Made by a program: the position numbers and the translations under genes. A stretch of DNA of 64,000 nt, from assembly GCA_035646355.1 (NCBI GenBank), contig DASRPN010000155.1:10711-74710 (forward strand), in the 5' to 3' direction. Positions 10,868-20,375 of this stretch are shown piece after piece (the stretch's first letter is position 1; each line of letters starts with the position of its first letter). The stretch comes from Pyrinomonadaceae bacterium (GTDB lineage: Bacteria; Acidobacteriota; Blastocatellia; Pyrinomonadales; Pyrinomonadaceae). The notes beneath the pieces are model-generated. The model did not search any database and was not told where the DNA came from. It was given only the letters and a program-made list of their open reading frames with translations.

Positions 10868-12067
10868 GTGCTGGTGATGCTGGCACTGGCGTTTTCCTGC
10901 TCGCGCGACACCGCTGAGAACACAAATCAACCAGACCGCAGCACGATCAAAATCGGTTACTTCGGCGATCTGAGTGGTCCAACTTTCAACTTCGGACAGT
11001 CCGGGATCAACGGCGTGCTTATGGCCGCCGATAACATTAACCAGGCCGGAGGCATTAACGGCCGGCGCATCGACGTCGTGATCCAGGATGACAAGGGCAG
11101 TCCGGAAGAAGCGGCACGCCTCACGGCAAAACTGATCGATCAGGACAAGGTGGTAGCGATCATCGGCGGCGGCACGTCGGGGAACAGTCGCGCGGCCGCG
11201 CCACGGGCACAGTCGTCGCATGTGCCGCTGATCTCGCCCTCGTCAACTGACCCCGCGGTGACGCTCGTCGGCGATTACATCTTTCGCGCGTGTTTTGTCG
11301 ACGAGTTTCAGGGCGAAGTGATGGCAAGTTTCGCCTTCAACTCACTCAAAGCACGCAAGGCCGCGATACTTTTCGATTTCAACTCCCCGTACGGACGCGG
11401 TTTGACAAGCTTCTTTCAGGCGAGTTTCAAACGTCTCGGCGGACAAATCGTTAACGAGCAGTCGTACACGCAGGGCGACGTCGAATTCAAGGGTCAGTTA
11501 AGTTCGATCAAGGCGTCTGAACCTGACGTGATTTACATTCCGGGCTACTACGGCGATGTCACGTTGATTGCCAAACAAGCTCGGCAACTTGGTCTTACGC
11601 AACCGTTGCTCGGCGGCGATGGGTGGGACGCGCCTGAGCTGTGGCCGCTGGGAGGCGACGCTCTGAACGGTTCGTACATCTCGACGCACTATTCAGTTGA
11701 CGATCCTTCGCCGGCGATTCGCTCGTTCGTGGACGAGTACATGCGACGTTACGGCAACCTCGCGCCGGACGCACATGCCGCGTTGGCCTACGACGCTGCG
11801 CGAATTCTCTTCGCCGCAATTACGCGCGCCGGATCGACCGAAGGAGCAAAAGTGCGCGAAGCCCTGGCGCAAACGAAAGACTTCAACGGCGTGACGGGGA
11901 TGATCAGTATGGACCGACACCGCAACTCAGTGAAACCAGCAGTTGTGTTGAAGTTGATGGATGTGAGGTTTATTTACCAGGAGACGATTCAGCCAATTCG
12001 CGTCGAGCATTCGCCAGCGACTCCTTCACCGACGCCCTCGCCGTCCCGCCGGTCTGCGACTTCCTAG
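10868..12067 (+). CDS. Branched-chain amino-acid ABC transporter substrate-binding lipoprotein, copy 2 (paralogue of 5622..6920)
   Basis: ORF 10634..12067, but its first ~75 codons read through element D. The mature part aligns along its whole length with copy 1. Lipobox LALAFSC. The true start is uncertain: in-frame GTG 10868, GTG 10874 or ATG 10877. Pro/Ser/Thr-rich C-terminal tail. Confidence 0.8.
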   Translation: MLVMLALAFSCSRDTAENTNQPDRSTIKIGYFGDLSGPTFNFGQSGINGVLMAADNINQAGGINGRRIDVVIQDDKGSPEEAARLTAKLIDQDKVVAIIGGGTSGNSRAAAPRAQSSHVPLISPSSTDPAVTLVGDYIFRACFVDEFQGEVMASFAFNSLKARKAAILFDFNSPYGRGLTSFFQASFKRLGGQIVNEQSYTQGDVEFKGQLSSIKASEPDVIYIPGYYGDVTLIAKQARQLGLTQPLLGGDGWDAPELWPLGGDALNGSYISTHYSVDDPSPAIRSFVDEYMRRYGNLAPDAHAALAYDAARILFAAITRAGSTEGAKVREALAQTKDFNGVTGMISMDRHRNSVKPAVVLKLMDVRFIYQETIQPIRVEHSPATPSPTPSPSRRSATS

Positions 12068-13325
12068 TTAACGTTTGTTCTAGAGACAACGCGTCGTAGA
12101 CGTCCGTGTCGATGAGCGATGAGAACGTCTTTAATTCTTCGAGACTTATCTCTTCCATCTGTGTTTTCAGTTCGATCGCACGGACCACGACTCTACCGAC
12201 GATCTCATGCGCGTCTCGAAACGGCATTCCTTTGCGGACAAGATAATCGGCAAGCTCGGTTGCATTCATATAACCGCCGAGTGAGGGTTTGGTGACGGTG
12301 ATGTTTGTTAGAACGATGCTCGTCACTTGCAACGACGCCGTAACAGTATCGAACGCGTCAAACACCGCCTCCTTGTCTTCTTGCATGTCTTTGTTGTAAG
12401 CGAGCGGCAGACCTTTCAACGTCGTCAGCAGTCCAAGCAAGTCTCCAAACACACGACCCGCCTTTCCGCGTACCAGTTCCATCGAATCCGGATTCTTCTT
12501 CTGCGGCATCAGACTCGATCCGGTGGCAATCGCATCACCCAACTCGAAAAACCCAAACTCAGTCGTCGCATACACAATCACGTCTTCAGCCAACCGCGAC
12601 AGGTGGACCATGATCAACGAACACGCACTGAGGAACTCAACACAGAAATCGCGATCGCTGACGGCGTCGAGACTGTTTTTCGTCACATCTTCAAAACCAA
12701 GCGACTGCGCGAGTGCGGCGCGATCGATCGGAAACGATGTACCCGCCAGCGCTGCTGATCCCAGCGGCATGACGTTCACACGCCGGCGAGTATCGATCAG
12801 CCGTTCGCGATCGCGCGACAACATCTCGAAGTATGCGAGACACCAGTGCGCCAGCAACACAGGTTGCGCCCGTTGCAAGTGCGTGTACCCGGGAATGACG
12901 ATTTCGGAGTTCGCGTCAGCAAAGTCGAGCAGCGCGGTTTGCGTGAGTCGAAGCGTTGCGTCGAGGTTGTCGATGCCCTGGCGCAGCCAGAGTCGAAAGT
13001 CGGTGGCGACTTGATCGTTGCGGCTGCGTCCGGTATGCAGCTTCCTCCCTGCGTCGCCAATCAATTCGACTAATCGCGCCTCGACAAAGGAGTGCACGTC
13101 TTCTTCTGGCGCGTCATCCTGGCAACCACGGTCGAAAATCTTCTTGAGAGCATCACGGATCTGCGCACCCTCTTCCGCGGTGATAACTCGCGCGTTTTCG
13201 AGCGCTTCGGTGTACGCGATGCTCGCCGTTACATCAGCCTCAAACAGCCGGCGGTCGAAACGAAATGAGTTATTAAAGGCCGCGAAGCCGGGATCCGTCT
13301 TGTCCTTGAATCTGCCACCCCACAT
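11970..13325 (-). CDS. argH: Argininosuccinate lyase
   Basis: ORF 11970..13361. Start moved to ATG 13325 (MWGGRF...), with AAGGAG upstream. Fumarate-lyase signature GSSLMPQKKNPD. Confidence 0.92.
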   Translation of the reverse strand: MWGGRFKDKTDPGFAAFNNSFRFDRRLFEADVTASIAYTEALENARVITAEEGAQIRDALKKIFDRGCQDDAPEEDVHSFVEARLVELIGDAGRKLHTGRSRNDQVATDFRLWLRQGIDNLDATLRLTQTALLDFADANSEIVIPGYTHLQRAQPVLLAHWCLAYFEMLSRDRERLIDTRRRVNVMPLGSAALAGTSFPIDRAALAQSLGFEDVTKNSLDAVSDRDFCVEFLSACSLIMVHLSRLAEDVIVYATTEFGFFELGDAIATGSSLMPQKKNPDSMELVRGKAGRVFGDLLGLLTTLKGLPLAYNKDMQEDKEAVFDAFDTVTASLQVTSIVLTNITVTKPSLGGYMNATELADYLVRKGMPFRDAHEIVGRVVVRAIELKTQMEEISLEELKTFSSLIDTDVYDALSLEQTLTRKSQTGGTARASVKESLANARRELAESSPGK

Positions 13326-13365
13326 AAACCAAAAGTCTCCTTGACTACGTCCAACTCGCATGCTA

Positions 13366-13413: not shown

Positions 13414-13836
13414 ATGAATAAGCGCGACCGTCAGCAGAAGATTTTGAGCCTGATTCGAGCCAAGCCCATCGGCACGCAGGAAGACTTGCGTGCTCTGCTC
13501 GAGAAGTCCGGCGTGCCGGCCACGCAGTCGAGCGTGTCTCGCGATTTGGAAGAGCTCGGCGTCGTCAAGCACCACGGCCATTACACGCTGCCGCGAACAA
13601 ATGGCGCGGCTGCGCGCGGCCTGCTGAGTTTAGACCACGCGGGCGACAGTTTGGTAATCGCCCGCACCGTGCCGGGACTCGCGTCGGCAGTAGCAGTCGA
13701 GATCGACGCCGCCGCGATCCCTGAGATCGTCGGCACGATTGCTGGCGAAGACACCATCTTTATTGCAGTACGCGATCAGAAAATGACCGTAAAGAAAGTT
13801 TGGAAGTTATTTGGGACCGCGGATGAAAACAATTAA
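13414..13836 (+). CDS. argR: Arginine repressor ArgR
   Basis: 140 aa. N-terminal winged-helix pattern (RQQKILSLI....[28 protein letters not shown]) and C-terminal oligomerisation/arginine-binding pattern ([11 protein letters not shown]). Confidence 0.88.
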
Positions 13837-15016
13837 GAAGATAGTTTTGGCTTATTCGGGTGGTCTCGACACTTCGGTCATGCTCCGCTGGCTCAAAGAG
13901 CACTACGACTGCGAGGTCGTTTGCTACTGCGCCGACGTGGGCCAGGGCGCCGAGTTGTCGGGTCTTGAAGAGAAAGCCCACGCGACCGGAGCGTCGAAAC
14001 TTTACGTGGAAGATCTGCGCGAGGAGTTTGTGCGCGATTACGTTTGGACCGCGGTTAAAGCGAATGCGGTTTACGAAGGTGTTTATCTGATGGGCACTTC
14101 CCTCGCCCGTCCTGTGATCGCGAAACGGCAGATCGAGATTGCGCAAAAAGAGGGCGCGGACGCGGTGGCCCACGGGGCGACCGGCAAAGGAAACGATCAG
14201 GTCCGCTTCGAGCTGACTTACTACGCGCTGCAACCGGACATCAAGGTGATCGCGCCGTGGCGCGAGTGGGAGTACAAGGGACGGGCAGATTTAATCGCTT
14301 ACGCGAAAGAGCACGGCATCCCGGTCACGGCCACGGCCGAGAAACCATACTCGACTGATGCGAACTTGATGCACATCTCGTACGAGGGCGGCATCCTCGA
14401 GGACCCGTGGGCCGAACCGCCGGAGAACATCTTTCAGCTCACGCGCTCGCCTGAGAACGCAAGTGCCGAAGCGCAGTACGTCGAGATCTCTTTCGAGAAA
14501 GGTGAGCCGGTGGCGGTTGACGGGCGCCGGCTTGATCCGGTCACGCTGCTTGAGACCTTGAATGGATTGGGCGGCGCGCACGGGATTGGTCGTGTCGATC
14601 TCGTCGAGAATCGCTTCGTGGGGATGAAGTCGCGCGGCGTGTACGAGACGCCCGGCGTCACGATGCTGCACGCAGCGCATCGCGCGCTCGAGTCAATAAC
14701 TCTCGATCGCGAAGTCATGCACCTGCGCGATTCGCTGGGTGTGAAGTTCGCCGAGAGCGTGTATTACGGTTTCTGGTTTGCGCCGGAATTCAAGCTCATG
14801 AGCAAGCTGATTGACGAAACGCAGGTCAAGGTAACTGGCGACGTGCGTCTTAAGCTTTATCGCGGAAATACGATCGTCGTCGGACGTCGTTCACCGAATT
14901 CGTTGTACGACGAGAACATCGCCACGTTTGAAGCCGACACCGTTTACAACCAGCGCGATGCTGAAGGATTTATCAAGCTCAATGCGTTACGCCTGCGATT
15001 AGGGGGGCAAAGGTAA
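13823..15016 (+). CDS. argG: Argininosuccinate synthase
   Basis: ORF 13811..15016. Likely ATG 13823 ([18 protein letters not shown], the N-type ATP-PPase motif). Overlaps the argR 3' end by 14 nt. Confidence 0.92.
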
Positions 15017-15017
15017 T

Positions 15018-15169
15018 GAATGCGAAATTGCGGGATTGCGAAATTGCGGATTTGGCAGAGCGCAGAATTGTCCAATTGCCAGATGTCGAGAACGGCACGT
15101 CGCGGAATGAGTTCGAACTGCTGAACTCGACCAATGCCGCAATTTCGCAATCTCACGATTCCGCAATGG
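15018..15169. repeat. Word-repeat hairpin element E (ATTGCG type)
   Basis: GAATGCGAAATTGCGGGATTGCGAAATTGCGGATTTGG ... CCAATGCCGCAATTTCGCAATCTCACGATTCCGCAATGG. The loop holds a second small palindrome, GAGTTCgaactgctGAACTC. Confidence 0.8.
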
Positions 15170-16209
15170 TTTCCGTCGTTGATGTCGATAAAATCGGATC
15201 GGCCACGTCGCCGCTTGGATTGGCGAAGACCGTCGGTTTCGTAAGTTCATCGTCGTCAACGCGTGCGGGAGATGTTGTTGTCGTGCGCGCGCTGACTGAC
15301 AGTGCGACTTACAACATGCTCGAGCTGCCCACAGGACGTTTGGCGAAGATTAATCCGGGCGACATGTTGATTGGCGTGCTTGGTCGCCGGCGTGCGTTGA
15401 AGGGTTTCGTCGGCGACGTTCCTGCTAGCGTGAAAGCAGGAGACGAACTTCATTTGCTCAACATGGGCGGTGTGATTGGTTGTTGCACCGGACATCACTC
15501 GAGTCTTGGCGAGGCGATTAAGCTGGAAGTGATTGGACTCGTGTGTGATGAAGACGGCCAGGTGCTGAACATCGCAAACGCCGCGTTACCATTGCGCGCA
15601 CGACTGGGTAAAACCGCGCCGATCGTAATGATCGCCGGCACTAGTATGAACAGCGGCAAGACGTACGCCGCTACTGAGTTAATTAAACAAGCGACGCGAG
15701 CGGGGTTGAAAGTTGCCGCCGCTAAACTATCCGGTGTGGCCTGTCTGCGTGACACGCTGAACATGGCAGACCACGGAGCTGTTGCCACTGCGAGTTTTCT
15801 CGATTGCGGTTTGCCTTCGACTGTTGACGTCGAAGACCTTGCGCCGATGGCGAAAGCCATCATCGCGAAACTAAATGAGATCGCGCCTGATCTGATCGTC
15901 ATCGAGTTAGGCGACGGCATTCTCGGCGGCTATTCAGTCGATACAGTATTCAGCGATGTGGAGTTGCTGGATGCGACCGCGGCGCTGGTGTTCTGTGCGT
16001 CTGACTACGTTGGGGCGTGGGGAGGGATCGAGTTGTTGCGACGGCGCGGTGTCGAGGTCGATGTGGTTTCCGGTTCGGTTACTGACTCGCGCATGGGCGG
16101 CGACTACATCAAGTCGCAGTTCAATGTGCCGGCAGCTAATGCGCGGCGTGAAGGTGAAACGTTGTTTGAGTTGGTGATGGCTAAAGTTGGAGCAACAGTA
16201 GCAGTCTGA
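15166..16209 (+). CDS. Uncharacterised two-domain protein with a dethiobiotin-synthetase/CobQ/DUF1611-type P-loop, embedded in the arg operon
   Basis: ORF 15016..16209, whose first 50 codons are encoded by repeat element E. In-frame ATG 15166 gives 347 aa. GTSMNSGKT (G-x5-GKT) lies at 15637-15663, then IVIELGDG. Stop is 2 nt before the argC ATG. Confidence 0.6.
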   Translation: MVSVVDVDKIGSATSPLGLAKTVGFVSSSSSTRAGDVVVVRALTDSATYNMLELPTGRLAKINPGDMLIGVLGRRRALKGFVGDVPASVKAGDELHLLNMGGVIGCCTGHHSSLGEAIKLEVIGLVCDEDGQVLNIANAALPLRARLGKTAPIVMIAGTSMNSGKTYAATELIKQATRAGLKVAAAKLSGVACLRDTLNMADHGAVATASFLDCGLPSTVDVEDLAPMAKAIIAKLNEIAPDLIVIELGDGILGGYSVDTVFSDVELLDATAALVFCASDYVGAWGGIELLRRRGVEVDVVSGSVTDSRMGGDYIKSQFNVPAANARREGETLFELVMAKVGATVAV

Positions 16210-16211
16210 CG

Positions 16212-17234
16212 ATGAATAAAATCCGTGTGGCAATCCTTGGTGGTTCTGGTTACGGCGGCTCCGAGCTGCTGCGTATTCTGCTGTCTCATCCGAACGTCGA
16301 ACTGGCGCTCGTAACGGCGAACGAACACGCGGGCAAGGCCGTCGGCGAAGTGCACCGCAATCTCAATGGGCTGACTGATCTTAATTTTGTTGCAGCGCCG
16401 GAAAGCATCGATACCGTCGATTGCGTTTTCCTCGCGCTCCCGCACGGGCGGGCAATGGACATCGTTCCGCGACTGCCCGGTGAAACCAAGGCGATCGATC
16501 TGTCGGGCGATTTTCGACTGCGCGATCAAGCTGTTTTCGAGAAGCACTACAAACAACCGCACACCGCGATGGGAGTTCAGGCGGAGTTTGTTTATGGTCT
16601 GACTGAGACAAATCGCGAAGCAATTAAGAACGCGCGACTGATCGCTAACCCCGGCTGTTTTGCTACTGCAACGCTACTCGGACTAGCGCCTCTCGTTGCG
16701 AACGGCGTGCTCACCGGTCGCGTGATCGTTGACGCGAAGACGGGATCATCGGGTTCGGGCGCTAAAGCGGCGGCTAACACGCATCACCCGCAACGCATGA
16801 ACTCGTTCTACGCGTACAAGCCATTCACGCATCAGCACGTGCCCGAGATCGAACAAGAACTCGAACACGTCGGCGATTGGACCAACGAACTCGTCTTCAT
16901 GACACACTCGCTGCCGCTGTCGCGCGGGATCTTTGCGTCAATTTATGCTGAGACAAAAACAGATCACACCGAAGATCAATTGCGAACAATGTTCGCAGAT
17001 TATTATCGCGACTCCTTCTTCGTCCGGCTGGTAAACGGTTCGCCTGACATCAACTGGGTGAAGACGACTAACTTCTGCGACATCGGATTTGCGGTGCGCG
17101 CAAACTCCATCGTGGTCTTCTCTGCGATCGACAATCTCGTGAAAGGCGCCGCCGGTCAAGCAGTGCAGAACATGAATCTTATGTTTGGTCTGGATGAAAA
17201 GACCGGTTTGATGCTGGTCGGTACAAATCCGTGA
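16212..17234 (+). CDS. argC: N-acyl-gamma-glutamyl-phosphate reductase
   Basis: 340 aa. GGSGYGG NAD(P) loop and active-site NPGCFAT motif. Confidence 0.92.
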   Translation: MNKIRVAILGGSGYGGSELLRILLSHPNVELALVTANEHAGKAVGEVHRNLNGLTDLNFVAAPESIDTVDCVFLALPHGRAMDIVPRLPGETKAIDLSGDFRLRDQAVFEKHYKQPHTAMGVQAEFVYGLTETNREAIKNARLIANPGCFATATLLGLAPLVANGVLTGRVIVDAKTGSSGSGAKAAANTHHPQRMNSFYAYKPFTHQHVPEIEQELEHVGDWTNELVFMTHSLPLSRGIFASIYAETKTDHTEDQLRTMFADYYRDSFFVRLVNGSPDINWVKTTNFCDIGFAVRANSIVVFSAIDNLVKGAAGQAVQNMNLMFGLDEKTGLMLVGTNP

Positions 17235-18409
17235 AATCCGTAAAATCCGTGGTTCAGATCGAGGACGAGTTTCAGCTCGGCACTTATAAAAAAATGCCTA
17301 TCGCCGCTGAACGTGGCGATGGTGTGTGGATCTACACGACTGACGGCGACAAGTATCTCGATCTTTACGGCGGGCACGCTGTCGCCGGCACCGGGCATTG
17401 TCATCCACACGTGGTGCAGGCCATCGGCAAGCAGTCGGAGAAATTGTTGTTTTATTCGAACCTCGTCTACTCCGCCGCACGCGCGCGCGCAGCGGAACGG
17501 CTGATTTCGATCGCGCCCGCAGCATTGACCAAAGCTTTCTTCTGCAATTCCGGTACGGAAGCAAACGAGAACGCTATGCGTATGGCGCGCATGGCAACGG
17601 ACCGCGAAAACATCATCACCTTCAGCGGCGGATTTCACGGGCGTACAGCCGATTCGATTAGCGCGACGTTCCTGGGCAAGTATCGCGAACTCGGTCGACC
17701 AAACGTTCCCGGGCACTTGGAAGCAACGTTTGGCGATGTCGAATCGGTACGCGCGCTGGTTGACGAAAACGTCGCCGCGATCATGCTCGAACCGATCCAG
17801 TCGATGGCCGGCGTGCTCATGGCCCAACCCAAGTTTTATCGTGAACTGCGCGAGTTATGCGACGAATTTGGCGTGGTGCTGATCTACGACGAGGTGCAGA
17901 CCGGAGTAGGTCGCACCGGTGAATGGTTCTTCGCCGGAAACACAGCAGGTGACGGCGTCGTGCCCGACATCGTAACGCTGGCGAAGGCGCTCGGCAGCGG
18001 CGTGCCTGTCGGCGCGTGCCTGGTCACCGAAGCCATCAGTTCGCACATCAAAGAAAACGATCTCGGAACCACGTTTGGCGGCGGCATGTTGGCAATGGCG
18101 GCTGTGACCGCTACTCTTGAAGCGATCCAAAACGATGGAATGCTGGGGAACGTCAAAGCCGTCGAAGCACGCCTGCGAGAGCGATTGCGCGAGATCGAAC
18201 AGGTGGTTGCTGTCCGCGGTCTCGGCTTCTTGTTGGGAATTGAGTTCAAGGATAAAGCCGCACCCATTCACAAAGCGTTGCTCGACCGTAAAATCATTAC
18301 CGGAACGTCAAGCGACGCAAACGTTTTGCGGTTGCTGCCACCACTATGCTTAGGGATGGACCATGTGGATTTGTTTGTTGAGCAGCTAGGGGCGATATGC
18401 ACTTCCTAA
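17231..18409 (+). CDS. argD: Acetyl/succinyl-ornithine aminotransferase (class III PLP aminotransferase)
   Basis: 392 aa. GTEANE and DEVQTG...TLAKALG (PLP lysine) motifs. GTG start overlaps the argC stop (GTGA). Confidence 0.9.
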   Translation: MKSVKSVVQIEDEFQLGTYKKMPIAAERGDGVWIYTTDGDKYLDLYGGHAVAGTGHCHPHVVQAIGKQSEKLLFYSNLVYSAARARAAERLISIAPAALTKAFFCNSGTEANENAMRMARMATDRENIITFSGGFHGRTADSISATFLGKYRELGRPNVPGHLEATFGDVESVRALVDENVAAIMLEPIQSMAGVLMAQPKFYRELRELCDEFGVVLIYDEVQTGVGRTGEWFFAGNTAGDGVVPDIVTLAKALGSGVPVGACLVTEAISSHIKENDLGTTFGGGMLAMAAVTATLEAIQNDGMLGNVKAVEARLRERLREIEQVVAVRGLGFLLGIEFKDKAAPIHKALLDRKIITGTSSDANVLRLLPPLCLGMDHVDLFVEQLGAICTS

Positions 18410-19383
18410 CCACGAAAGATTCCGATCTGAATGCACTGATCGAGTCCGCGTTGCGCTTCAAGCGCGGCGACGATCGCTCGCGGCCGCTCGAGGGCAAGTC
18501 AGTGGCCCTGGTGTTCTTCAATCCGAGTTTGCGCACGCGTGCGTCGATGCAAGTGGGCGTCTACGAGCTAGGCGGCAACGCGGTCGTACTCGAACCCGGC
18601 GGGACGAGTTGGACGCTCGAGCATCGCGCAGGCGCGGTGATGGACGGTGATAAGACTGAACACGTATCCGAGTTTGTGCGCGTGCTCGAACGATACTGTG
18701 TCGCGATCGGTGTGCGTACCTTTGCGGCGCTGAAAGACTGGGCGGAGGAACGGACCGATCCGATTCTAAATTCGTTTGCACGGTACGCATCGGTGCCGAT
18801 CATCAATCTTGAATCCGCGATGCATCATCCCTGCCAATCACTCGCTGACATGATGACGATACGCGAGAAACTCGGCGCGGGACGCAAACGCGTCCTGTTG
18901 ACCTGGGCGTGGCATCCGAAATTGCTTCCGATGGCCGTGCCAAACAGTTTCGCACTCGCGGCGGCGCAAATGGGGCACGACCTCGTCATCGCACATCCGC
19001 CCGGATACGATCTCGACGAAGAGTTGATCGAAGATTCGCGAAAAGTTGCGGCCGATGCAGGCGGCAGCCTGACGATCAGTAACGACATGGACACGGCTTT
19101 CGCCGGCGCTGAAGTGATCTACGCGAAGAGTTGGGGCGCCAAACAGTTTTACGGGCGCGACGAACAAGACACGATCACGCGGGCGCAGTATCGCAACAAG
19201 TGGATCGTTAACGAGCGCCGCATGGCCCAAACGGACGACGCGATCTTCATGCATTGTCTGCCCGTGCGTCGTAACGTGATCGTAACCGACGGTGTGATCG
19301 ACTCAGCTTCATCCGTGGTGATTGATGAAGCCGAAAACCGGTTGCACGTCCAAAAAGCCGTAATTGCTGAGCTTTGTGCTTAG
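18397..19383 (+). CDS. argF': N-acyl-L-ornithine carbamoyltransferase (AOTCase/SOTCase family, argF')
   Basis: SLRTR replaces the STRTR of classical OTCase. HPCQ and HCLP motifs. Along its length it resembles the Xanthomonas N-acetylornithine transcarbamylase as I remember it (FFNPS.RTR, W..E, VMDGD..EH, IDEAENRLHVQKA). Confidence 0.85.
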   Translation: MHFLTTKDSDLNALIESALRFKRGDDRSRPLEGKSVALVFFNPSLRTRASMQVGVYELGGNAVVLEPGGTSWTLEHRAGAVMDGDKTEHVSEFVRVLERYCVAIGVRTFAALKDWAEERTDPILNSFARYASVPIINLESAMHHPCQSLADMMTIREKLGAGRKRVLLTWAWHPKLLPMAVPNSFALAAAQMGHDLVIAHPPGYDLDEELIEDSRKVAADAGGSLTISNDMDTAFAGAEVIYAKSWGAKQFYGRDEQDTITRAQYRNKWIVNERRMAQTDDAIFMHCLPVRRNVIVTDGVIDSASSVVIDEAENRLHVQKAVIAELCA

Positions 19384-19459
19384 TGCTTGGTACTTAATAC
19401 TTTGTTGTTTGGTCTGCGATCAAAGCACAAAGTACTAAGTACTAAGTACAAAGAACAAG
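19381..19459. repeat. Word-repeat hairpin element G (GTAC/CAAAG type)
   Basis: TAGTGCTTGGTACTTAATACTTTGTTGTTTG ... CAAAGCACAAAGTACTAAGTACTAAGTACAAAGAACAAG. Begins with the argF' stop codon and ends 4 nt before the argB ATG. Confidence 0.85.
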
Positions 19460-19463
19460 AAAC

Positions 19464-20375
19464 ATGACCGAACCGAGAACAAGTATCGACGATCAGCTAC
19501 GTCTCGATCTCCTGCGTGAAGCGCTGCCGTACATCCAGCGCTTCCAGGGACACACGTTTGTGGTCAAGCTCTCCGGAAAAGTTACCGAAGTTCAGGAGAA
19601 CCTCATTTCGCTGGCTGAGGAGTTGGCGTTACTGCACCAGGTCGGCATACGCATCTGCGTCGTGCACGGTGGGGGCAAACAACTCAGCGAACTCGCCACG
19701 AGGCTCGGGATCGAACAGACGATCATCGAGGGCCGTCGTGTCACGGACGACGCGACGCTCGAAATGGCCAAGATGATCTTTGCCGGCAAGATTAATACCG
19801 ACATCCTGGCAGCGCTCCGCCATCGCAGCATCGAAGCTGTCGGTTTGTCGGGCGTCGACGGCAACATCGTCCACGCCGAACGACGTCCGCCGAAAGAGAT
19901 CGTCAACCGCGAGACTGGTGTGCGCGACAAGGTCGATTTCGGACATGTCGGCGACGTCGTGCAGATCAACGCACGACTGCTGACCGTCCTGCTGGACCAC
20001 GGCTATCTGCCCGTGATCTCATCGCTTGGCGCGGATGACGAAGGCATGGTCTTCAACATCAACGCCGACACGATAGCCGCTGAAATCGCAGTCCAACTTC
20101 AGGCCGAGAAGCTAATCCTGCTCAGCGACGTCGACGGTATCTACTTGAAGTCCGGCGATCCACAGACAAAACTGTCGCGTCTCACGGCCGCCGAGACTGA
20201 TGAGTTGATCAGCAGCGGCGCCGCAACCGGCGGCATGATTCCGAAACTACAGAACATCGCCACGCTGTTGCGACGCGGCGTGCATAGTGCTCACATCATC
20301 AGCGGCTCCAAACGCAACGCGCTCCTGTCCGAAGTTTTCACCGACAAAGGCACCGGAACAATGATCGTCGCCTAA
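19464..20375 (+). CDS. argB: N-acylglutamate kinase
   Basis: 303 aa. Amino-acid kinase fold motifs VVKLSG, VVHGGG, NINAD. Confidence 0.9.
   Translation: MTEPRTSIDDQLRLDLLREALPYIQRFQGHTFVVKLSGKVTEVQENLISLAEELALLHQVGIRICVVHGGGKQLSELATRLGIEQTIIEGRRVTDDATLEMAKMIFAGKINTDILAALRHRSIEAVGLSGVDGNIVHAERRPPKEIVNRETGVRDKVDFGHVGDVVQINARLLTVLLDHGYLPVISSLGADDEGMVFNINADTIAAEIAVQLQAEKLILLSDVDGIYLKSGDPQTKLSRLTAAETDELISSGAATGGMIPKLQNIATLLRRGVHSAHIISGSKRNALLSEVFTDKGTGTMIVA

Follow-up and report, generated by a model that had tools for sequence, protein, structure and literature searches.

When the arginine pathway of prototrophic bacteria is reconstructed, N-acylglutamate synthase is repeatedly the step left empty, and the locus described here raises the question of which protein could fill it. 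The locus lies in a 64,000-nt stretch of DNA (the window) from a Pyrinomonadaceae bacterium (Acidobacteriota, Blastocatellia; assembly GCA_035646355.1, contig DASRPN010000155.1), where the arginine genes are arranged as argH<-argR-argG-X-argC-argD-argF'-argB, with the gene that we call X between argG and argC. The X protein belongs to a large and structurally distinctive family that has neither a Pfam or NCBIfam model nor a solved structure, and whose function is predicted only. We propose that X is probably an N-succinyl(acyl)-L-glutamate synthase, a non-orthologous replacement for ArgA/ArgJ at the first step of arginine synthesis. X bears both on the pathway gap and on a mechanistic question, namely whether the acyl group would come from succinyl-CoA or from succinate with ATP.

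The original prediction, made from the sequence of the window alone, had suggested that X is a non-orthologous N-acyl-L-glutamate synthase. That suggestion is now supported by profile, structure and linkage analyses and by an independent prediction set out in Appendix 2 of a preprint, which is discussed below. Linkage was assessed in 80 retrieved Blastocatellia loci and in distant homologues, with gene order read as far as each contig reaches; a scan of a genome collection had returned Blastocatellia only. The order seen in the window was kept in 80 of 80 Blastocatellia loci, in which X is 74-97% identical, a range similar to that of the arginine enzymes; the locus closest to the window (97% identical) comes from an uncultured Acidobacteriota metagenome-assembled genome (MAG). 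Arginine clusters also hold X homologues at 32-51% identity, several of them from MAGs labelled as other phyla, and the distant arginine-linked contexts number eight independent loci and one fusion to ArgB. The gene order is argR-X-argC-argD-argF'-argB at 40% identity (P0150), and at 32% identity it is argG-argH-X-argC-argD-argF'-argB with an M20 gene alongside (P0180) or argG-X-argF'-argH (P0188). Further examples occur in MAGs labelled Gemmatimonadota (P0130; argR-X-argC-argD-argB-argG), Deltaproteobacteria/Pseudomonadota (P0402; argR-X-argC-argD-argF'-argB) and Candidatus Wallbacteria (P0415; argG-X, with argC ~5 kb downstream). Conserved linkage to argC and argF' holds down to 32% identity and in MAGs labelled with five phyla. 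In a MAG labelled Planctomycetota (P0482, locus L098) the order is argG-X-argC-argD-argF'-argB-M20(ArgE/DapE family)-argH. This operon covers all steps from N-acylglutamate on and X is its sole extra gene, so the single unassigned reaction is glutamate acylation. In the fusion protein (P0164; 626 aa, four contigs), X and an ArgB/ArgA-type amino-acid-kinase domain (TIGR00761, 127 bits) share a single reading frame, an arrangement that echoes the kinase-acyltransferase pairing of classical ArgA.

Genes for the two remaining steps were sought around X. A Pfam scan of 30 further open reading frames (ORFs) of 116-570 aa in the window revealed no GNAT, ArgJ or M20 protein; the window has 57 non-overlapping ORFs of at least 90 aa, of which about 19, mostly ABC-transport genes and ORFs of >580 or <100 aa, lay outside the direct scans. 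A tblastn search with two M20 deacylases as queries likewise gave no match in the window. The earlier statement that the window contains no GNAT, ArgJ or M20 gene stands for the ORFs scanned and is very likely correct overall, although it is not exhaustive. No ArgA-type or ArgE-type gene turned up in the window, nor closer than 10 kb to X in any of the 80 Blastocatellia loci, and Steroidobacter is described in Appendix 2 of the preprint as being without both ArgA and ArgE (bioRxiv 10.1101/2024.10.14.618325). Such a double absence would suit a protein that catalyzes the second missing step, or both of them, either as an N-acylcitrulline deacylase or as an ArgJ-like transacylase passing the acyl group from N-acylcitrulline or N-acylornithine to glutamate. 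We consider this highly improbable for X: an ArgE/DapE-family M20 gene adjoins some arginine-linked homologues (L084, L098), so that deacylation is encoded separately at least there, the fusion partner in P0164 is the step-2 kinase and not a late-pathway enzyme, and we know of no P-loop hydrolase or transacylase of such a kind.

The identity of ArgF' bears on the acyl group. When Glu92 of N-acetylornithine transcarbamylase is replaced by A, P, S or V, the preferred substrate is stated to become N-succinylornithine (bioRxiv 10.1101/2024.10.14.618325, citing Shi et al. 2007). In a gapless alignment with the X. campestris enzyme (3kzc), ArgF' of the window has Thr87 at the position of Glu92, and the PDB entries of the E92A, E92S and E92V mutants align at the same column. 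The residue is T in the window and in 62 of the fetched loci whose ArgF' match covers the position, while the distant arginine-linked loci have S, A, V, P or I there and Glu is found in none. For the ArgF' proteins neighboring the family treated in the preprint, Appendix 2 gives A/P/S/V at position 92 in 90% and a total of 97% when I and T are included (bioRxiv 10.1101/2024.10.14.618325). Given that Glu is missing from the specificity position, succinylated intermediates, on which the arginine route of Bacteroides relies (PMC7311316, PMC8121099), are the likelier route, and by this sequence criterion the acyl group is more likely to be succinyl than acetyl.

The AlphaFold model of X (pLDDT 97.7, pTM 0.94) is all-beta from residue 1 to ~147 and continues as an alpha/beta P-loop domain, which bears out an earlier description of the protein as a beta-rich N-terminal domain followed by a P-loop domain. 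Conservation was evaluated in an alignment of 69 full-length, diverse homologues at 28-50% identity. G164, K165, K187 and E247 are invariant in this set, and nearly invariant positions are found in both the N-domain (G35, E53, G73, R75, P86, G102, G105, G124) and the C-domain (T166, G190, D196, D213, G215, T219, D280, G303). Across the superfamily, non-arginine paralogues included, K165, T166, K187, D196, D213 and E247 are invariant or nearly so. Another group of residues (S12, Y49, L78, G80, N99, G249, G254, Y256, D307, N325) is conserved in the arginine clade only, and these are candidate substrate-specificity positions. The family comprises 1440 clusters at 50% identity with E < 1e-3, 171 of them with E < 1e-30.

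X falls under every Pfam and NCBIfam threshold, as do the 69 diverse homologues and nine further members or paralogues. Its best Pfam matches (DUF1611, CbiA and MobB) all lie within ~40 residues round the Walker A loop; DUF1611 (PF07755) scored 21.9 bits against a cut-off of 25, with residues 149-185 aligned to profile positions 10-46 of 201 (~37 residues). Among the 69 homologues DUF1611 was matched by 18 at E <= 0.01 (best 1.3e-5), and it scored no more than 21 bits in nine more members or paralogues. NCBIfam returned BioD, CobB and MobB at noise level only, the BioD equivalog TIGR00347 scoring 14.4 bits against a cut-off of 83.3, and no GNAT, amino-acid-kinase or ArgJ domain was detected in X by either database. 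DUF1611 proteins have a Rossmann-like N-domain. From the sequence alone, X had been described as carrying a P-loop of the dethiobiotin-synthetase/CobQ/DUF1611 type. The GxxxxxGKT spacing, the BioD-like fold and the place of X at the edge of DUF1611, CbiA and MobB agree with this, and that place favors the proposed synthase role; X is not a formal member of DUF1611, since it scores below threshold and has a different N-domain.

A Foldseek search of the X model against the PDB produced matches in the C-domain only (TMq at most 0.41), with dethiobiotin synthetase (3of5) first (E 1.1e-6), followed by HypB and FtsY, the D-glutamate N-acetyltransferase DgcN (7XRJ) in fifth place, and then MeaB. A sequence search of the PDB with X alone returned nothing. 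When X was aligned with E. coli BioD using hhalign (probability 76%, E 2.2e-5), GTSMNSGKT was placed on GTDTEVGKT, K187 on K37 and E247 on E115; K37 is the BioD lysine with a catalytic role and E115 the glutamate with a role in Mg2+ binding. With the BioD-type loop, the lysine and the glutamate all kept, X retains what enzymes of the dethiobiotin-synthetase class use for phosphoryl transfer or nucleotide binding. X differs from BioD in having an extra 147-residue N-domain and an arginine rather than a biotin context, in addition to its score far below the TIGR00347 threshold.

HypB, MeaB and signal recognition particle GTPases appear among the Foldseek matches with E-values similar to that of BioD, as would suit an accessory or regulatory NTPase co-transcribed with the arginine genes, whether a metallochaperone like HypB/MeaB or an assembly factor. 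A role of this sort strikes us as very unlikely for X: the GxxxxxGKT spacing is of the BioD type and the K37 and E115 counterparts are present, a pathway step would be otherwise unaccounted for in the complete operon L098, and fusion with an ArgB-like domain speaks for a role in metabolism. Specifically, a G3E metallochaperone was ruled out by the wrong Walker A spacing and by the two residues that correspond to the lysine and glutamate of BioD.

The two-domain build of X, its conserved positions and its arginine linkage are observed; what X catalyzes, with which acyl group and from which donor, we infer as follows. X would N-acylate L-glutamate, most probably to N-succinyl-L-glutamate, and ArgB, ArgC, ArgD and the N-acylornithine carbamoyltransferase ArgF' would convert this product further, until a deacylase encoded elsewhere freed citrulline for use by ArgG and ArgH. 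Catalysis would be the work of the dethiobiotin-synthetase-like P-loop domain, and the family-specific all-beta N-domain would probably contribute to substrate binding. The leading mechanism is modelled on DgcN, which is indeed a glutamate N-acetyltransferase, as had been stated when the locus was first noticed (EC 2.3.1.312, acting on D-glutamate; PMC11747546, PMC12363236). The P-loop alpha/beta domains of DgcN (DUF1611/PF07755) and X belong to one fold class (E 6.7e-6, 229 columns, root-mean-square deviation (rmsd) 5.3 A, TMq 0.38 for 7XRJ), and DgcN acylates the amino group of glutamate, which is the activity proposed for X. They differ in that DgcN acts on D-Glu, is catabolic and, by its EC class (PMC11747546), uses acetyl-CoA, and the sequence match between them extends over only ~37 P-loop residues. 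By this model, succinyl-CoA would donate the acyl group and the P-loop would bind the nucleotide portion of CoA.

The same step could also be carried out by an ATP-dependent ligase, an N-succinylglutamate synthetase that, as in BioD, CobB/CobQ and CTP synthase, would phosphorylate a free carboxylate (succinate or acetate) and allow the alpha-amino group of glutamate to attack the acyl phosphate with no CoA thioester involved. We regard this as a serious but clearly less probable alternative. In its favor, dethiobiotin synthetase (3of5) is the best structural match and hhalign aligns the loop, the lysine and the glutamate with those of E. coli BioD. The superfamily-wide conservation of K165, T166, K187, D196, D213 and E247 fits a site for phosphoryl transfer from a Mg-bound nucleoside triphosphate, and a paralogue on a Priestia plasmid lies between two ATP-grasp ligases in a natural-product-like cluster. 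On the other hand, DgcN, the only characterized relative with glutamate-acylating activity, carries an acyltransferase number (EC 2.3.1.312), conservation of the loop does not discriminate because the ADP moiety of CoA is also a possible P-loop ligand, and the Mg-ligand assignment depends on a profile alignment of 76% probability. In its strongest form, which we hold to be similarly doubtful, X would found a class of CoA-independent, ATP-dependent N-succinylglutamate synthetases in which the P-loop domain makes succinyl phosphate from free succinate and the all-beta domain, of a kind not seen before, presents L-glutamate, and the ~30%-identity paralogues in natural-product-like clusters would be related amide-forming ligases. 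Were the ligase to prove correct, arginine synthesis in Acidobacteriota, Gemmatimonadota, Planctomycetota and others would begin with a ligase and not with an acyltransferase.

The proposal of an alternative ArgA in this family has a precedent. In Appendix 2 of the GapMind 2026 preprint, such a role is predicted for Steroidobacter ACG33_RS14135 (UniProt A0A127FCT3), homologues of which are stated there to be 'virtually always' in arg operons and never to co-occur with ArgA homologues, and a weak Foldseek likeness of this protein to DgcN 7XRJ is given (rmsd 5.6 A, E 1.4e-7) (bioRxiv 10.1101/2024.10.14.618325). As described in that appendix, the ACG33_RS14135 family resembles X in consisting of hypothetical proteins in argB/C/D/F'/G/H/R clusters, sometimes next to an argE candidate, in having a weak match to 7XRJ and an accompanying ArgF' without Glu92, and in the ArgA role proposed for it. 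Unlike the Steroidobacter protein, X comes from another phylum, the Acidobacteriota. X is best grouped as a new member, from Acidobacteriota, of a family for which the role of an alternative ArgA had already been predicted, and the idea itself is not new. The ArgB fusion, the unmatched N-domain, the BioD-like residues and the non-arginine paralogues are not mentioned in the preprint's main-text paragraph on this family or in its Appendix 2.

The reaction proposed for X is known from GNAT-type N-succinylglutamate/N-acetylglutamate synthases such as BT3761 and Cabys_1732. BT3761 of B. thetaiotaomicron is encoded in a five-gene arg operon with argG (BT3760) and argC (BT3759), in line with the earlier statement that Bacteroidetes place their acyltransferase beside argG (PMC8121099). 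In addition to the proposed reaction, the GNAT synthases share with X an ArgF'-type transcarbamylase and, as proposed here, succinylated intermediates, and BT3761 shares the place in an arg operon; neither they nor classical ArgA/ArgJ have any sequence or fold relationship to X. If X is indeed a synthase, it would be a third, structurally unrelated solution for a committed and normally arginine-regulated first step. The succinylated arginine route would then reach well beyond Bacteroidota, and automated auxotrophy predictions would change for abundant soil lineages (Pyrinomonadaceae/Blastocatellia, Gemmatimonadota, Planctomycetota).

Several points weigh against a synthase role for X. Judged from the model, the likeness to DgcN is weak and remote, no better than that to dethiobiotin synthetase, HypB or FtsY, and a sequence search of the PDB with the family profile misses 7XRJ, finding only P-loop segments of FtsY, BioD and MobB. 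The all-beta N-domain (residues 1-147) has no Pfam match and, searched alone with Foldseek, resembles no solved structure, not even 7XRJ (best E 0.47, TM < 0.3). Relatives at ~30% identity occur in non-arginine contexts (Paracoccus, Priestia, glgA/glgC and a contig with fungal domains), so the fold alone does not fix the reaction. Thr is not among the substitutions tested by mutagenesis at Glu92 of ArgF', and the absence of argA, argJ and argE concerns the scanned ORFs of the 64-kb window, not the whole genome. X and ACG33_RS14135 are very probably of the same family, matched by description and not by sequence; protein searches with X returned no match named Steroidobacter. The role of X, as of every member of the family, is a prediction.

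Features of the cluster are collected in the table below. The curated cut-offs of Pfam or NCBIfam were exceeded by argG, argC, argF' and argB; the argF' score, against a cut-off of 288 for NF003384 (N-acetylornithine carbamoyltransferase), assigns the protein to the N-acylornithine type. Both Pfam domains of argR pass and its NCBIfam equivalog score is under the cut-off, while argD is clear by Pfam Aminotran_3 and narrowly misses the NF002325 cut-off of 372 bits. The listed ORF of argG starts at TTG 13811, and ATG 13823 is the likely start. The argC and argD genes overlap by 4 nt, and the X stop codon (TGA, 16207-16209) is followed by the argC ATG at 16212. The names given to the neighboring genes in the original prediction were borne out by Pfam and NCBIfam, and its coordinates, junctions and motifs for X agreed with a check of the sequence. 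The LysW/ArgX carrier-protein pathway was ruled out, as the scores of ArgB and ArgC are those of the classical enzymes and the cluster includes an ArgF'-type acylornithine transcarbamylase.

Table. Arginine genes of the window and features of the candidate synthase X, with positions in the 64,000-nt stretch.
Feature	Coordinates	Strand	Evidence
argH (argininosuccinate lyase)	11970..13361	-	ORF; Lyase_1/ASL_C2 in syntenic locus L001; synteny in 80 loci; divergent from argR
argR (arginine repressor)	13414..13836	+	PF01316 and PF02863
argG (argininosuccinate synthase)	13823..15016	+	NF001770, 630 bits
Hairpin element, from argG stop/ancestral X start to conserved X body	15017..15165	+	Inverted repeat 15012-15174; in frame, stop-free
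X, candidate N-succinyl(acyl)-L-glutamate synthase, 347 aa	15166..16209	+	ORF; homologues mostly ~350 aa
X N-terminal all-beta domain, residues 1-147	15166..15606	+	AlphaFold2 model of the domain alone, pLDDT 96.4
X C-terminal dethiobiotin-synthetase-like (SIMIBI-type) P-loop domain	15607..16209	+	Foldseek; hhalign to E. coli BioD
Walker A GTSMNSGKT, GxxxxxGKT spacing (G158..G164-K165-T166)	15637..15663	+	Sequence; aligns to BioD GTDTEVGKT
K187 (AAKLSGV), invariant	15724..15726	+	Aligns with the BioD lysine known as K37
E247 (IVIELGDG), invariant	15904..15906	+	Aligns with the BioD glutamate known as E115 (VEGAGG)
argC	16212..17234	+	TIGR01850, 404.5 bits
argD (N-acylornithine aminotransferase)	17231..18409	+	PF00202, 339.5 bits; NF002325, 371.5 bits
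argF' (N-acylornithine carbamoyltransferase)	18397..19383	+	NF003384, 445.7 bits
argB (N-acylglutamate kinase)	19464..20375	+	TIGR00761, 221.6 bits

The start of X is complicated by a hairpin element. Hairpins had been noted from the sequence in the argG-X and argF'-argB gaps, and long imperfect inverted repeats are present in both, the first with 54-nt arms and the second (19374-19458) with 41-nt arms that are 80% complementary. The argF'-argB hairpin contains AT-rich GTACT/AAGTAC repeats. The X ORF at 15016-16209 encodes 397 aa, and the internal ATG at 15166 gives 347 aa. The element at 15016-15165 measures exactly 150 nt, is in frame without a stop codon and lies 3' of an ATG that overlaps the argG stop (TAATG). 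At a 93%-identical locus (L003; 1240-1300), the X start overlaps the argG stop (ATGA) and the hairpin is absent, so the 150 nt may have been inserted in frame directly behind the ancestral start codon, which would make them part of the 5' end of the X gene and not purely intergenic. Either the ATG at 15166 or the ancestral ATG at 15016 is the start of X. The 50-codon N-terminal extension was ruled out as a conserved part of the protein by its absence from L003. The 97%-identical homologue P0001 has a gene call of 389 aa. Gaps at the arg gene junctions are variable, and at times far larger, in several Blastocatellia loci.

A rough neighbor-joining tree unites X in a single clade with the 40-51% homologues, P0180 and the ArgB fusion, and the ~30%-identity paralogues without arginine context branch apart. 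The exception is P0215 (L085 8001-9056; GCA_009193465.1, ML742132.1), a full-length homologue at 30% identity that falls in a sister clade with the arginine-linked bacterial P0188. No arginine genes were found near P0215 on contig ML742132.1; its neighbors carry fungal domains (a Zn_clus/Fungal_trans transcription factor and an EF3-type ABC protein), and a citrate synthase lies beside it.

Among the paralogues outside arginine clusters, those of the Paracoccus plasmids L089 (NZ_CP040765.1) and L091 (NZ_CP115776.1) belong to a conserved trio in which the X-like gene (28-31%) stands between an alpha/beta hydrolase and an ABC transporter; an S8 peptidase and a sigma factor are encoded nearby. These two are annotated as 'dethiobiotin synthase' or 'DUF1611 domain-containing protein', annotations that rest on sub-threshold P-loop matches (19.5 and 21 bits vs 25). 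On a Priestia megaterium plasmid (L090; NZ_CP085446.1, 85461-94149), a paralogue at 33% identity is found in the transposase-flanked, natural-product-like cluster referred to above. This cluster also encodes an ornithine transcarbamylase-like carbamoyltransferase, the two ATP-grasp proteins, a split thiamine pyrophosphate enzyme, an M20 peptidase, a luciferase-like monooxygenase-family oxidoreductase and an isocitrate lyase/phosphoenolpyruvate mutase family protein. One further ~30% paralogue sits in a glgA/glgC neighborhood. P0233 (519 aa) has a response-regulator receiver domain N-terminal to the X-like protein and was placed among the non-arginine paralogues from domain content and tree position only, and P0246 and P0260 (about 600-640 aa) have ~270-residue N-terminal extensions with no Pfam match.

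The loci of the ArgB fusion are metagenome contigs (L086 8001-9881, L087, L088), and the tblastn match begins ~100 nt 5' of the called start. Where the contig is long enough (L086 and L087), an arginase-family gene divergently adjoins the fusion gene. Arginase-family (PF00491) genes are near two unlike members of the X family, the ArgB fusion and the non-arginine P0262 by glgC (L093/L094 4713-5600), which may be coincidence or a link to arginine/agmatine metabolism outside the biosynthetic operon.

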